Shown in pieces: positions 28,864-52,410 of a stretch of DNA of 64,000 bases. The stretch comes from an uncultured Chloroflexia bacterium (lineage in GTDB: Bacteria > Chloroflexota > Anaerolineae > Anaerolineales > UBA11858). Location: contig CAVVUX010000002.1 in assembly GCA_963751575.1 (NCBI GenBank), forward strand, positions 367,984-431,983, in the 5' to 3' direction. The position numbers and the translations under genes were made by a program. Within the stretch, counting starts at the first letter, position 1; every line of letters starts with the position of its first letter. Under the pieces are notes generated by a model that ran no database searches, was not told the origin of the DNA, and was given only the letters and a program-made list of their open reading frames with translations.

Positions 28864-30594
28864 ATGAATAAAAAAGGAACGATTATCGAGCCCTACGGCG
28901 GAGAATTAGTAAACTTGGTTGTCAGCGATTCTGAAAAAGAGGACTGGTTGGAAAAAGCCAACCAATATCCATCCCATCAACTATCTGACAGGTCAATGCA
29001 CGATCTTGAACTTTTGGCGGTCGGTGGATTTTCACCCCTGACAACATTTATGGGCGAAGAGGATTATAACCGTGTATTAACTGAGATGAGATTGGCAAAC
29101 GGAGTTTTATTTCCTATTCCGATCACCCTCACTATTCAGAAGGAACAACTACCAACCCGGGGTGAGTGGATAACCCTGAGGGATTCTCGAAATTACATCA
29201 TAGCCGTGATGCGGATTGAGGAAGTTTATCGCTGGGACCCAATCAGGGAAGCCCGCCTCGTCCTTGGATCAACGGATCATCGACATCCCCTGGTCTCAGA
29301 AATGGAACAGTGGGGTGACCTGTGCATCTCTGGTGAACTTCGAGTGATAAATTTGCCGGAATATTATGATTTCACGGATATTCGCACATCTCCTCTCGAG
29401 GTCAGGGAAATTCTGGCAAAAATTGGCAATGAAAACGTCACGGCATTCCAGACCCGGAATCCTATGCACAGGGTTCATGAGGATCTAACCAAACGGGCGA
29501 TCGATAGAGTTGGCGGAAGTCTGTTAATTCACCCTGTTGTGGGTTTGACAAAACCTGGTGATGTGGACCACTATACCCGGGTTAGAGTGTATAAAACTCT
29601 GGTTGAAAATTATTATGATGCCAATACTGTCCTGAGTTTACTGCCCTTAGCCATGCGCATGGCAGGTCCAAGGGAAGCTCTCTGGCACGCGATCATACGC
29701 CGAAATTATGGAGCAAATCACTTGATAGTTGGCCGGGACCATGCTGGTCCCGGGAATGACAGCAACGGAAACCCATTTTATGGTCCCTACGAGGCCCAGG
29801 AAATGGTCGAGCAGTACAAAGATGAAACAGGTGTAGAAGGGGTATTATTTAACGAATTGGTTTACATAGAAAAAGATGACATCTATGTTGCCAAAGAAGA
29901 TGCTCCGGAAGATGCAGAAGCAAAATTCATCTCCGGTACCCAGGTGAGGGAAGAATACTTAAACAAAGGCAAAGATTTACCGGGATGGTTCACCAGGAAA
30001 GAAAGTGCCGAGATCTTGCGCGATTCCTATCCTCCCCTGCACAAACAAGGATTATGCATCTGGTTCACCGGCTTAAGCGGCTCAGGAAAGTCAACCATTG
30101 CCAATGCTCTGACCCCAATGCTGCTTGAGCGCGGTCGGGAAGCGACGACTCTGGATGGCGATGTCGTGAGAACCCATTTATCCAAAGGTCTTGGATTCAG
30201 TAAAGAAGACCGCGACACAAATATTCTCAGGATTGGTTTTGTCGCGGGAGAAATAGCCCGCCATTCCGGAACAGTGATCTGTGCCGCCATCAGTCCTTAC
30301 AGCAAAACCCGTAATGAGGCCAGAAAAATGGTGGGCAATGATCAGTTTATCGAAGTGTTTGTAGACACACCCCTGGAAATATGTGAAGAAAGGGATATCA
30401 AGGGTTTGTACGCCAAAGCCCGCAGCGGAGAGATCAAGGGTTTCACAGGTATTGATGATCCTTATGAAGCACCTGTCAATGCTGAGATCGTTGTCACCAC
30501 TGAGAAGAAATCACCAAAAGAATGTGCCCAGGAAATAATTGAATACCTGGAAGGTCGGGGATTCCTCAAACAGGAAGGTTTATATTCGAAATAG
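28864..30594 (+). CDS. sat-cysC: bifunctional sulfate adenylyltransferase / adenylylsulfate kinase (PAPS synthase)
   Basis: The N-terminal ATP-sulfurylase half carries [11 protein letters not shown] and VGRDHAGPG. The C-terminal APS-kinase half carries P-loop [11 protein letters not shown] and DGDVVR. The ORF is an intact 576 aa. Confidence 0.9.
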
Positions 30595-30666
30595 TGGGCT
30601 AATTGCAGTTGGATCTGATTTTAGAGCCATGGATTCTTCCAGTTGGATATTCCAAGGGAGCAAAAC

Positions 30667-31489
30667 ATGAACGGAATTCAAGAGTTATTTGACCTGACGG
30701 GAAGGGTTGCAATTGTAACTGGTGGAGCGGGGTTTCTTGGACAGCAGTTCTCAGAAGCATTAACTGAAGCTGGTGCCTCGATCGTTGTGGCTGATATCAA
30801 TCAAAAAGACGCTAGTCATTTTGCTGCAAAACTGGAAGACAAAGGTGGCAAAGCCATGGGTATTTCCGTGGATGTCACGGACCCTTACTCAGTTCAGAGC
30901 TTAATGGAAGAAACCCTGAAGAAATTTGGCAGATTGGATATTTTGGTTAATTCTGCCGCGCTGGACCCCAAATTTGAGGGAATTTCTTCTGAAAAACATG
31001 CCACGTCATTTGAAGAATTTTCACTTGATTCCTGGAAAGAAGCCCTTGATGTGAACTTGACTGGTATGTTCCTGATCTGTCAGGCAGGCGGCAAAGATCA
31101 TGAAGATCTCAGGCAAAGGATCGATCATCAATATATGTTCGACCTACGGCATAACTGGACCAGATCAGCGGTTATATGAGTCCCTTGGTGAACCCAGGCT
31201 CTACAAACCTGTCTACTACACAGTCAGCAAAGCTGGTGTATTGGGTCTAACAAAATATATCGCGACCTATTATGAAGGCACAGAGATCCGCTGTAATGCA
31301 CTCACACCGGGGGGAGTGGAACGAGAGCATGCTCAGGCATTTAAGGAAGCCTACAGCAGCAGAACAGTGCTGGGCAGGATGGCATATCCCCATGAGATGA
31401 AAGGAGCGGTTGTATTCCTCGCTTCTGAAGCATCGAGCTATATGACAGGATCTAATCTGGTTGTAGATGGAGGATGGACCGCATGGTAG
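30667..31489 (+). pseudogene. short-chain dehydrogenase/reductase, one frame disruption
   Basis: TGGAGFLGQ Rossmann motif, NSAA, then a +1 shift at ~31095-31100 (..CQAGGK | IMKISGKGSIINICS). The catalytic YTVSKAGVLGLTK (YxxxK) lies in the second frame. Confidence 0.7.
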
Positions 31490-32266
31490 AAGTACTGACA
31501 TTTATCCCGGCCCGGGGAGGATCAAAGGGTATTCCCCGGAAAAATATCAAGAATCTGGCTGGACATCCCTTGATTGCCTACAGCATAGCTGCATCCTTAG
31601 AGGCAGAATTGGTTAAGAGAACTATTGTCACCACTGATGATCCTGAAATAGCCGAGATTGCCCGGAAGTATGGGGCAGAAGTGCCTTTTCTACGGCCTGA
31701 AGAACTGGCGCAGGATGATACCCGGGATCTGCCGGTTTTTCAGCATGCATTGACCTGGCTAAAAGAGCAGGAGGGTTATCAGCCAGACCTGGTTGTCCAG
31801 CTCCGGCCAACCAGTCCCTTCCGTCCACCAGGCTTGATTGATGAAGCGATCAATATACTGTTGGATAACCCCGAGGCAACCTCTGTTCGAGGAGTTGTTC
31901 CTTCAAATCAGAATCCTTATAAAATGTGGCAGATCCTGGAAAATGGTGCAATGCGGCCAATTCTGGCATCTGGATCAATCAGAACCTTATAATATGCCCC
32001 GCCAGGAATTGCCGCAGACTTATTGGCAGACCGGTCACATTGATGTGATCAGGACTGAGACAATTCTCAATGGATCAATGACTGGCGATAATGTCTATGC
32101 TTGTCTGATTGACCCGATTTACTCGATAGATCTGGATAGTGCCCTGGATTGGGAGCAAGCAGAATCCCGGATCCCGGATTTGGGAACGAAAATCACGTTT
32201 CCTGGCTCCACAAAGATTGGATCCCTAAAGATATATCTCTGGTCGTTCTGGATTTTGATGGTGTGA
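31474..32266 (+). pseudogene. neuA: N-acylneuraminate (nonulosonate) cytidylyltransferase, one frame disruption
   Basis: FIPARGGSKGIPRKNIKNLAGHPLIAYSI is the CTP_transf_3 N-terminal signature, followed by LRPTSPFR. A +1 shift at ~31960 precedes ..EPYNMPRQELPQTYWQTGHIDVI. The 3' end overlaps, and may be fused to, the HAD phosphatase ORF. Confidence 0.75.
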
Positions 32267-50614: not shown

Positions 50615-51356
50615 ACAAGTTATTCTGTCGGTGGGTATGCCCCGGGCAGGTTCAGGATGGTACTACAATCTAACCCAGGACCTGGTGATTGCAGCTGGCG
50701 GTGTCGACGCCAAAATAATTCGATCCAGATATGGTTTGAATAAACTCTTAACACAAGTGAATTGCAATCTGGGAACATTGAGCAGTTATCGCCTGATCCC
50801 GGTTCTCGCCCCCTTGATCTTTGAACCCGGCTATGTGATTAAACTGCATGCTGGAAGACGCCCTCTCGCAGATCAGCTCATCAAATTAGGAGTGATAAAA
50901 CCAACCTTCATCTTTCGGGATCCGAGAGACTGTTTGCTTTCAGCATATGAAAATGGCCAGCTGATGTCTTCCCAAGGAATGACCAATGCATTTACACCTT
51001 TAAAGACTCTGGATGATGCAATTATGTTCATGGATTTTTATGTCAAAGTAGCCCGGGAGTGGATTGCCCAACCAGATACAATGGTTGTGAAATACGAGGA
51101 TTTAAAGGGTAATTACGATCAGGAAACTAGCCGCCTGATTGCTTTCCTGGGAGTTGACCCAGGCGATGTGAATGTTAAACGCATTCTCAATCAGTATCGT
51201 CCAGATCAGAAACCAAACAAGAAGCCGGGACTTCATTTTTCCAAGGGAAAGGTAGGCCGCTACCAGGAAGCATTCACGCCGGATCAACTGAATTTGTGTG
51301 AAAAGTTATTCGGTGATTTTTTGGTAGAGCACGGATATGAAAACTCACTCAGTTAA
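50607..51356 (+). CDS. sulfotransferase
   Basis: MSKQVILSVGMPRAGSGWYYNL is 5'-PSB-like and FIFRDPRDCLLSAY is 3'-PB-like. ATG 50607 overlaps the add stop by 8 nt. The track start at 50529 is an upstream extension. Confidence 0.75.
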   Translation: MSKQVILSVGMPRAGSGWYYNLTQDLVIAAGGVDAKIIRSRYGLNKLLTQVNCNLGTLSSYRLIPVLAPLIFEPGYVIKLHAGRRPLADQLIKLGVIKPTFIFRDPRDCLLSAYENGQLMSSQGMTNAFTPLKTLDDAIMFMDFYVKVAREWIAQPDTMVVKYEDLKGNYDQETSRLIAFLGVDPGDVNVKRILNQYRPDQKPNKKPGLHFSKGKVGRYQEAFTPDQLNLCEKLFGDFLVEHGYENSLS

Positions 51357-51487
51357 ATACGATCGGATCTGGTGCCTTATCAACTTCGGATGCCGAGTGG
51401 ATTTAAACGATAATAGAAAGCTGCAATTAAAACCTGCAGTGAAGCAGATCCAGGACCATTTGATGATGAATATGGAGATTACTTGGG

Positions 51488-52410
51488 ATGAATGAGAATA
51501 ATGTGAAACCTATATTAGTGACTGGAGCACATCGTTCTGGGTCTACCTGGGCGGGAAATATGATTTCATCACCCCCGGACATCGCTTATGTGAATGAACC
51601 TTTCAATATCCTGTATAAACCTGGTTCTTGCCGACCGCATTTCACTCATTGGTACACATACGTCTGCGACGAGAATGAATCCCTCCATTTTAAGTATATT
51701 GAGGACTGTCTGAGTTATAAACCGCGCATGTTTAACAAAGTTCTCAAACACGGGTCTCTGAGAGATCTGCCGAGGATATCAAAATTCCAGATTGAGTGTT
51801 ATAAAGCCCGGTTGCTGGGTAAAAGGCCCCTGATGAAGGATCCATTGGCAGTTCTCTCCAGTGAATGGCTGGCGAACGTTTTAATATGGATGTCGTCATC
51901 CTGATCAGACATCCAGCCGCATTTGTTGGTAGTCTGAAAGTTGCAAACTGGCCATTTCCTTTTTCCGATTTATTAAATCAACCACTTCTGATTGAACAGC
52001 ATTTTTCAAGGTATGAATCAGAAATATCGGAATACGCAGAAAATGAACGTGATCTAATCGATCAGGCTATTTTCCTCTGGAACTTGATCTATTCGATGGT
52101 ACTGAAATATAAGGTGAAGCATGGAGATGATTGGATCTTCATCACTCATGAGGACCTATCACGCTCTCCCCTCGATGAATTCAAGAAAATATTTAAGAAA
52201 CTTGAAATACCATTTACGGAACAGGCAGAAGGCAGAATTACCAAATATTCTTATGCAGATTCAAGAAATGAAGACAGCAGTATTCGTGACAGCAAATCCA
52301 ATATTTGGAAGTGGAAGAAAAGACTAACGGATGATGAAATTACTCGGGTTAGAGAGCGGACGTTCGAGATCTCAAAAAATTTTTATGCTGAGGATGACTG
52401 GCTCAGCTGA
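51488..52410 (+). pseudogene. sulfotransferase (paralog of 42887-43835), one frame disruption
   Basis: KPILVTGAHRSGSTWAGNMI, then a -1 shift at ~51872 (..LSSEWLA | ERFNMDVVILIRHPAAFVGSLKVANWPF). The C-terminus is WKWKKRLTDDEITRVRERT. Confidence 0.7.

Follow-up and report, generated by a model that had tools for sequence, protein, structure and literature searches.

The DNA considered here is a 64,000-nucleotide stretch (the window) of contig CAVVUX010000002.1, from an uncultured bacterium of the Anaerolineales. Its 27.1-53.6 kb segment, with an enzyme for making the sulfate donor 3'-phosphoadenosine-5'-phosphosulfate (PAPS) and four sulfotransferases among glycan genes, represents, by sequence comparison, a gene cluster that is conserved in dozens of species across the Anaerolineales (Chloroflexota). 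What would such a cluster make? The reading we favour, and hold to be reasonably probable, is that it supplies PAPS and sulfates, in the cytoplasm, a surface glycoconjugate containing a nonulosonic acid, the many frameshifts of the window copy being most likely assembly errors. The enzyme activities, the glycan acceptor, the site of each step and the sulfate esters on the product are what we infer from the domains and families assigned, the PAPS motifs, the folds and the conserved synteny. A first-pass annotation of the window had already proposed a sulfated-glycan locus; the PAPS synthase and the four sulfotransferase-superfamily members that it named are there, and their linkage is conserved, but in the sequence as given two of the sulfotransferases and 11 other genes are frameshifted.

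PAPS supply and four sulfotransferases

All genes from ~7.5 kb to 62 kb of the window lie on the + strand, and so do all the features described below within that range. The head of the cluster is Sat-CysC (28864-30594), a single unbroken open reading frame (ORF) of 576 amino acids with three Pfam domains, PUA_2 (160 bits), ATP-sulfurylase (260 bits) and APS_kinase (221 bits). It scores 834.8 bits against the NCBIfam equivalog NF004040 for bifunctional sulfate adenylyltransferase/adenylylsulfate kinase (cut-off 669) and aligns nearly end to end with the SAT/APS kinase of Aquifex aeolicus (PDB 2gks; residues 30-569, E 2.7e-227), which bears out the intact fusion of ATP sulfurylase and adenosine 5'-phosphosulfate (APS) kinase recorded at first pass. 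The sulfurylase motifs QxRNPxHxxH and GRDHAG are both found in the translation, as are the kinase motifs (P-loop GxxGxGKS, DGD and SPY). Relatives of the cluster were collected through ST1, one of the four sulfotransferases: 837 ST1 homologs were detected, 258 stretches of GTDB species-representative genomes were found, and 80 loci (L001 and so on) were kept, with labels almost all Anaerolineales, Anaerolineae or Chloroflexota. In the species-representative locus nearest to the window ST1 is 89% identical. The Sat-CysC ortholog of L001 is 92% identical, with zero frameshifts. On the strength of these sequence features the gene is an intact PAPS synthase gene, and the fused enzyme would convert sulfate and ATP to PAPS in the cytoplasm.

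Is this PAPS meant for glycans? Fused Sat-CysC enzymes serve assimilation in some bacteria, and the gene could be mainly a housekeeping one that activates sulfate for cysteine synthesis, its position among glycan genes being incidental or its use dual. Such a role could be squared with the lack of any regulator or riboswitch pointing either way in the Rfam and promoter scans: Rfam found no family in the window (for example, no sulfur-related riboswitch), and the promoter and terminator signals around Sat-CysC are no better than those of shuffled sequence. Against it, Sat-CysC lies at the cluster head, directly upstream of the ortholog of the short-chain dehydrogenase SDR273, in 22 of the 22 loci with enough flank to be scored, which belong to different species, and in rearranged variants it is found beside ST1. 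A sulfate-reduction gene, reductase included, was recognised nowhere among the window ORFs scanned or read, in keeping with the earlier statement that none is adjacent. The APS kinase domain, whose P-loop and Mg2+ motifs are intact, is moreover required for supplying sulfotransferases, whereas the APS-reductase route of sulfate assimilation can dispense with it. A mainly assimilatory role is thus improbable. The constant linkage of Sat-CysC, together with intact ST2, ST3 and ST4 genes in two relatives, makes a dedicated sulfation function the best reading.

The four sulfotransferase genes are not in the same condition. ST1 (35271-36137; 288 amino acids) and ST3 (50607-51356; 249 amino acids) are intact, and reach 51.6 and 47.5 bits against Sulfotransfer_1 without correction (Pfam cut-off 22 bits). 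ST2 (42887-43835) and its paralog ST4 (51488-52410) had been listed as ORFs as well, which they are not. ST2 meets a stop after 5 codons and requires four +1 corrections (at ~42897, 43049, 43661 and 43727), and ST4 has one -1 shift, a T missing from a T-run at ~51878, which splits it into ORFs of 138 and 181 amino acids. Their uncorrected fragments score at or under the Pfam cut-offs. After frameshift correction ST2 reaches 52.8 bits against Sulfotransfer_3 (cut-off 27 bits) and 36.3 bits against Sulfotransfer_1, and ST4 40.8 and 24.5 bits. Profile searches, then, recognise Sat-CysC, ST1 and ST3 directly, and ST2 and ST4 once corrected. All four sulfotransferases are intact in relatives; the L084 ortholog of corrected ST2 is 87% identical, and that of ST3 83%, with no frameshift.

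The start of ST1 is at 35271, and its homologs are uniformly 287-290 amino acids long. In 24 sequences of the ST1 family PK(A)GSH, YRDPRD..S and SGTFRKGxPGxW are invariant, in the ST3 family MPRAGSGW, RDPRD..S and HF.KG..GR, and in the ST2/ST4 family TGxHRSGxTW, Glu37 and IRHP..S. Each family conserves the 5'-phosphosulfate loop and the 3'-phosphate motif, and the PAPS-binding motifs quoted in the first-pass annotation are all present and invariant per family. The RDPRD..S and RKGxxGxW motifs of the ST1-family profile align with RNPRD..S and RKGxxGDWKxxFT of a mammalian SULT. Structure prediction agrees with this picture. Searched with Foldseek against the PDB, the AlphaFold2 (AF2) model of ST1 (pLDDT 90.6, pTM 0.88) matches 96 chains at E <= 0.001. 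Every one of the 50 best listed is a sulfotransferase, in most cases a cytosolic SULT solved with PAP or PAPS, and the first of them is SULT2A1 with PAPS (E 1.6e-8, Foldseek probability 1.00). The model of a 75% identical homolog of ST4 (pLDDT 89.6) has TPST1 with PAP as its top match (E 2.5e-7, Foldseek probability 1.00), and its matches comprise TPST1/2, the sulfotransferase domains of CurM and olefin synthase, mycobacterial Stf9/Stf1 and heparan-sulfate 3-O-sulfotransferases. Both models show the fold of PAPS-dependent sulfotransferases. It is well supported that ST1-ST4 belong to this superfamily, in three sequence families (ST1, ST3 and ST2/ST4) where at least two had been claimed. Inspection of the four sequences showed neither signal peptides nor membrane spans. 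The ST1 model starts with a long basic helix (residues 3-34), a possible membrane-surface anchor.

What do these enzymes sulfate? Some or all of them, especially ST3 and ST4, might use an acceptor other than a glycan, such as a lipid, a small metabolite or the tyrosines of a secreted protein, for example the InhA-like protein of the same cluster. The best structural matches of ST1 are small-molecule enzymes, the best folds for ST2/ST4 are tyrosylprotein sulfotransferases, the CurM polyketide sulfotransferase and mycobacterial Stf, and ST3-ST4 lie away from the glycosyltransferases, behind the InhA-like protein and an adenosine deaminase. However, these fold matches, at 14-19% identity, give no firm information on the acceptor, and heparan-sulfate 3-O-sulfotransferases are among those of ST2/ST4 too. 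ST1 and ST2, moreover, are lodged between glycosyltransferase and CMP-sugar genes, with overlapping or nearly abutting reading frames, in dozens of species. A non-glycan acceptor seems to us unlikely. The adenosine deaminase family gene (49586-50614, intact) ends within the start of ST3 (corresponding stretches: L084 8992-10741 and L085 8992-10744), and the series deaminase, ST3, ST4, deacetylase is intact in both of these relatives; it is conceivable that the deaminase is tied to the adenine-nucleotide by-products of PAPS use.

A conserved cluster with a nonulosonic-acid module

L001 (ST1 identity 80%) has the entire upstream order with every gene intact: a GT-C gene, a small ORF, TauE, Usp, Sat-CysC, SDR, CMP-synthetase/HAD, NeuB, p534 and ST1, followed by GT2, cytidylyltransferase, 2-hydroxyacid dehydrogenase, SDR, MptE-like, PMT_2, ST2, GT2, p349 and Wzy_C. 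L084 and L085 have the downstream half in the order of the window, again with all genes intact: PMT_2, GT2, ST2, GT2, p350, Wzy_C, InhA-like, YtxH (on the minus strand), adenosine deaminase, ST3, ST4 and deacetylase. Upstream of ST1, p534 is present in 38 of 39 loci and NeuB in 33 of 39; downstream, the block of cytidylyltransferase, D-2-hydroxyacid dehydrogenase (2HADH), SDR and MptE is present in 47-50 of 53 loci and ST2 in 30 of 53. Even where the cluster is rearranged ST1 still adjoins NeuB (L004) or Sat-CysC (L065 and L068). ST1 is thus constantly accompanied by the PAPS synthase and by a module for ulosonic/nonulosonic acid; this module, the most constant of its partners, is not in the first-pass annotation. 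Sulfotransferases are clustered with glycosyltransferases and polymerisation genes in the window, L001, L084 and L085. Full-text literature searches on sulfotransferases of Anaerolineae/Chloroflexi returned no description of this cluster.

Which sugar would the module make? In the window it begins behind Sat-CysC with SDR273 (30667-31489), a short-chain dehydrogenase by domain match and alignment, followed by a CMP-sugar synthetase of the CTP_transf_3 family fused to a KdsC-type HAD phosphatase (31483-32715, both domains matched), a NeuB-family ulosonic/nonulosonic acid synthase of 301 amino acids without SAF domain (32718-33622) and p534 (33663-35274), a candidate ulosonic-acid transferase with weak matches to Capsule_synth and BFO_1060. 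Four intact genes recognised by domain match follow ST1: a GT2 glycosyltransferase (36156-37124), a second CTP_transf_3 cytidylyltransferase (37130-37798), 2HADH (37802-38770) and SDR252, an oxidoreductase of 252 amino acids (38767-39525). Next come an MptE-like (Maf-type) protein (39530-40382), whose L001 ortholog matches PF01973 at 48.9 bits, and a PMT_2 (GT-C) membrane glycosyltransferase (40391-41824; domain match and alignment). NeuB-family synthase and CMP-sugar synthetase occur together, both frameshifted in the window and intact in L001, where the synthase scores 269 bits against NeuB. The NCBIfam equivalogs all stay under their cut-offs (given in brackets), with NeuB_NnaB at 267 (400), PseI at 214 (340) and PseF at 150 (206) bits and, for the phosphatase, KdsC at 139 (208) and KDN-9-P phosphatase at 101 (180) bits; these scores therefore assign the product to none of Neu5Ac, KDN, Pse, Leg or Kdo. 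No NeuC-type epimerase was seen alongside the NeuB/HAD/CTP_transf_3 set.

Putting these parts together, the NeuB-type synthase, the KdsC-type phosphatase and the cytidylyltransferases would make a CMP-activated ulosonic or nonulosonic acid, and the neighbouring GT2 enzymes would assemble the glycan. There are two candidate ulosonic-acid transferases, p534 and the MptE/Maf-like protein, and one or both probably add the acidic sugar. The four soluble sulfotransferases (ST1, ST3 and the ST2/ST4 pair) would then move sulfate from PAPS to the glycan, acting in the cytoplasm on a lipid-linked oligosaccharide with the CMP-activated nine-carbon (or related) acidic sugar, and GT-C and Wzy_C membrane proteins would handle the completed unit, either by polymerisation or by attachment outside the membrane. 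Could this be an Anaerolineales-wide pathway for a sulfated nonulosonic-acid surface glycan, a counterpart of sulfated sialoglycans in which ST1 is the sulfotransferase associated with the ulosonic acid? We put this forward tentatively, as an idea with odds rather against it.

The remaining genes of the cluster begin upstream of Sat-CysC with a GT-C-like membrane protein (27078-28705; 531 amino acids in L005), 90% identical once corrected; its L001 ortholog has a weak PMT_2 match and the L005 protein has no Pfam match. ST2 is framed by two GT2 glycosyltransferases, at 41899-42890 (338 amino acids in L084) and 43829-44616 (260 amino acids in L084), both recognised by domain match and alignment. 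After them come p350 (44639-45697), a conserved protein of ~350 amino acids placed by alignment, and an intact Wzy_C-family membrane protein (45694-47184; domain match), a family of polymerases, ligases and O-oligosaccharyltransferases. The InhA-like MAM-domain protein (47177-49201; 674 amino acids, intact, domain match) overlaps the end of the Wzy_C gene, a position kept in L084 and L085, and could be a target or partner of the glycan machinery. The last gene of the island encodes a polysaccharide deacetylase family protein (52532-53572; domain match). Here the first-pass annotation is borne out for the glycosyltransferases and the O-antigen-ligase-family protein. Its 'Wzz-like' gene is p350, which has no profile or family match, and its Wzm/Wzt-type ABC exporter pair, found in the scan of window ORFs at 10652-12839, lies 16 kb upstream of the span it was assigned to, behind and among other deoxy- and amino-sugar (sugar-nucleotide) genes, and could belong to a different glycan. 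As Chloroflexota are regarded as monoderm bacteria that lack lipopolysaccharide (LPS), labels such as O-antigen ligase or exporter are not to be taken literally; the product would be either a polysaccharide, wall-associated or secreted, or a glycan linked to protein, and not an O antigen.

The cluster varies at its edges. Upstream of Sat-CysC a TauE/SafE permease gene (~10 loci) and a universal-stress-protein gene (~14 loci) are found in relatives, as at L001 1728-3473; in the window there is a gap of just 159 bp (28705-28864). L065 and L068 have ST1 immediately upstream of Sat-CysC, L004 has a small ORF, NeuB and ST1 with no Sat-CysC between, and L005 (8272-11275) and L003 have a copy of ST1 and then a truncated GT2 gene directly after the GT-C gene. 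In L043 (955-11753), from a more distant Anaerolinea clade, NeuB, here with a SAF domain, forms a fusion of 709 amino acids with a xylose-isomerase-like TIM barrel, and between p534 and ST1 stand genes for methyltransferase, class-II aaRS-like, GNAT, aminoglycoside-N-acetyltransferase-like and DUF4910 proteins; N-acyl-modifying genes are inserted, and a second Sulfotransfer_1 gene follows ST1. The bins of L004 and L008 are labelled Porphyromonadaceae and Nitrosomonadaceae, yet their genes are 66-89% identical to those of Anaerolineales, in identical synteny, and these contigs are probably mis-binned. Further upstream in the window, a MarR/winged-helix gene (18436-18924) amid dTDP-glucose and GDP-mannose dehydratase-type sugar-nucleotide genes is a candidate regulator of the island.

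Frameshifts in the window copy

The copy in the window is not the intact cluster of the relatives. Frameshift-aware protein-to-DNA alignment against intact syntenic references (L001, L084, L085 and L005), covering ~5000 corrected codons, calls ~44 single-base frameshifts, in 13 genes between 24.26 and 45.3 kb plus one in ST4, and about half of the cluster genes are broken in the window sequence. The counts are one in the gene at 23082-24504, five (all +1) in the GT-C-like gene, one in SDR273, 2-4 in the CMP-synthetase/phosphatase, one in NeuB, nine in p534, three in the MptE-like gene, at least four in PMT_2, five (all +1) in the first of the two GT2 genes around ST2, four in ST2, three in the second GT2 gene, three in p350 and one in ST4. 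Besides ST2 and ST4, 11 further genes are affected, among them the NeuB-type synthase, three GT2, two GT-C and the CMP-sugar synthetase. By type there are 35 +1 shifts, 8 -1 and 1 +2. No frameshift is found in Sat-CysC, in the block from ST1 through GT2, cytidylyltransferase and 2HADH to SDR252 (35271-39525), in Wzy_C, InhA-like, adenosine deaminase and ST3, or in the window before ~24 kb and after 52.5 kb. A +1 shift scored 5 residues before the end of the cytidylyltransferase is read as a C-terminal difference between two proteins, not a frameshift.

Is the cluster decaying in this strain, or is the sequence wrong? We hold it likely, and with good confidence, that the frameshifts are errors in the consensus of a long-read metagenome assembly, in a region that varies between strains, where failed polishing is a plausible cause. 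Signs of such variability are the mosaic ancestry of the region, the structural variants of relatives and a rearrangement scar at 25.65-27.1 kb. Strict global nucleotide alignment with the closest references over two segments (27.1-28.8 and 41.9-45.7 kb) shows that 20 of 21 single-base indels are insertions, and the adjacent 45.7-51.4 kb has no coding indel. Bacterial pseudogenes are deletion-biased and gather nonsense mutations and larger deletions; here the insertion bias is the opposite, no in-frame stop codon created by substitution was found in the corrected codons and no large deletion in the broken genes. After correction the broken genes are 75-90% identical in amino acids to their relatives, compared with 80-92% for intact neighbours, and dN/dS is 0.03-0.20 in the former and 0.03-0.13 in the latter. 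Nine independent frameshifts in the 1.6 kb of p534, with no other damage, are hard to obtain by neutral decay. The source contig, at 1.56 Mb, points to a long-read metagenome-assembled genome (MAG), and sporadic frame switches occur in the same cluster genes of other long-read MAGs, namely in four of 11 'MFD' MAG loci as against just two among the other ~70 loci; in L005, itself a long-read MAG, Sat-CysC and p534 are split. The excess of insertions, the lack of nonsense changes, the low dN/dS and the intact relatives together favour artefact over decay. Two accounts were rejected: homopolymer errors, as the one site within a T-run (four T) is that of ST4 and roughly one insertion in three is just a copy of the next base, the remainder not even that, and ancient pseudogenisation as the main explanation, by dN/dS and nonsense counts.

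The competing account is a real pseudogene cluster, decaying in this strain, with the sulfated product lost here though made by relatives. Some observations fit it. The frameshifts stand in the public record, where the source gene call for ST4 is the 181-amino-acid fragment (P0138); they are limited to one part of the island, the flanks at 1-24 kb and 53-64 kb being clean; the insertions are mostly outside homopolymers; structural variants of the cluster exist in related strains; and there are scars of rearrangement. A 63-amino-acid ORF at 25652-25843 is a second copy of the N-terminal part of the GT-C-like gene (start at 27078), and between the two lies a methyltransferase cassette (25840-26755) of low GC (~35%), in two pieces. 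The stretch 25652-27078, where the cluster is bordered upstream, has the look of a true insertion/duplication scar. With no nonsense substitution or large deletion to show for it, and with broken genes that equal their intact neighbours, such decay is in our view unlikely, though less so than either an assimilatory Sat-CysC or a non-glycan acceptor. Recombination may have a part in the history of the region: dS against L084 is 0.45-0.51 at 41.8-44.6 kb and 0.75-1.08 at 45.7-51.4 kb, the lower-dS segment coinciding with the frameshifted one, which suggests recombination or mosaic ancestry within the cluster. Outside the main frameshift zone, a 441-residue PMT_2-family ORF is followed 62 bp on by a 121-residue ORF resembling its C-terminal continuation (8517-10270), and this may be another split GT-C gene.

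What weighs against sulfation of a nonulosonic-acid glycan and assembly error as the joint explanation? The frameshifts are strongly clustered and mostly outside homopolymers, a pattern that a simple sequencing-error model fails to predict, and their density is ten-fold above that in other long-read loci. As deposited, 13 genes of the locus are broken; the window copy as written could not make the product, and if the frameshifts are real the strain makes nothing. The window also lacks the TauE-family permease found ahead of Sat-CysC in some relatives. Finally, the closest solved folds are small-molecule SULTs for ST1 and tyrosylprotein, polyketide and glycolipid sulfotransferases for ST2/ST4, not exclusively carbohydrate sulfotransferases, so that a glycan as acceptor of ST1-ST4 is something we infer. 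The indels, which look technical, break half of the genes in the deposited sequence, so that gene-content surveys of long-read MAGs would undercount the pathway.

Relation to known systems and significance

The architecture of Sat-CysC, a PUA-like domain, ATP sulfurylase and APS kinase, is that of the Aquifex aeolicus enzyme. To our knowledge the latter is not linked to sulfotransferase genes, unlike the gene described here, which heads a glycan cluster. The nonulosonic-acid module resembles bacterial pathways with a phosphorylated intermediate, such as the KDN-9-P pathway of Bacteroides, in bringing together a NeuB-family synthase, a HAD phosphatase of the KdsC/KDN-9-P-phosphatase type and CTP_transf_3; it differs in the fusion of phosphatase and cytidylyltransferase and in its coupling to sulfotransferases and a PAPS synthase.

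For the tie between PAPS synthesis and glycoconjugate sulfation the best precedent is rhizobial. In Sinorhizobium meliloti and Mesorhizobium loti the PAPS enzyme (nodPQ) is likewise genetically tied to glycoconjugate sulfotransferases (NodH/LpsS); PAPS supply is required there for sulfated Nod factor, LPS and surface polysaccharides, and in M. loti loss of nodPQ abolishes polysaccharide sulfation (PMC6192434). The parts differ. NodPQ is of the GTPase-coupled CysDN/CysC type, whereas the Anaerolineales cluster has a PUA-Sat-CysC fusion; rhizobia have one sulfotransferase per product and not four; and theirs is a diderm proteobacterial host with LPS and without a nonulosonic-acid module. The xss cluster of Synechocystis makes synechan, in which sulfate has been confirmed chemically (PMC8205485). 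It too is large and devoted to a polysaccharide; several of its genes encode glycosyltransferases, others serve polymerisation, and its sulfotransferases (xssA and xssE) come from different subfamilies. As its genes are described, xss has a Wzx/Wzy/PCP pathway and two sulfotransferases, with no NeuB or CMP-sugar genes, and no PAPS synthase is listed (PMC8205485); the Anaerolineales cluster has four sulfotransferases, of three families, and is headed by Sat-CysC.

What does this mean? The logic of PAPS supply plus glycan sulfotransferases is known; what sets this cluster apart from the rhizobial and cyanobacterial ones is the fused Sat-CysC, the four sulfotransferases, the nonulosonic-acid module and the Chloroflexota host. 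Much is known of sulfated glycans in animals, algae and cyanobacteria, but they are barely documented in other bacteria. Anaerolineales are abundant in sludge habitats. According to PMC8205485, the only genetically dissected bacterial cluster for a sulfated extracellular polysaccharide is the cyanobacterial one, sulfotransferase genes were not found in other bacterial clusters of this kind and sulfated polysaccharides were unreported outside cyanobacteria. In granular sludges sulfated and sialylated polymers have been measured, with few sulfotransferase matches among the dominant genera (PMC10483923). Among the candidate genes that the cluster offers are those for a PAPS synthase, for sulfotransferases of three uncharacterised subfamilies and for a nonulosonic-acid module. 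If the tentative idea of an Anaerolineales-wide pathway is true, the restriction of bacterial sulfated polysaccharides to cyanobacteria reported in PMC8205485 would be broken and their range extended to Chloroflexota, and the extracellular polymers of granular sludges that are both sialylated and sulfated, and whose sulfotransferase genes escaped the study that measured them (PMC10483923), would gain a first genetic basis.

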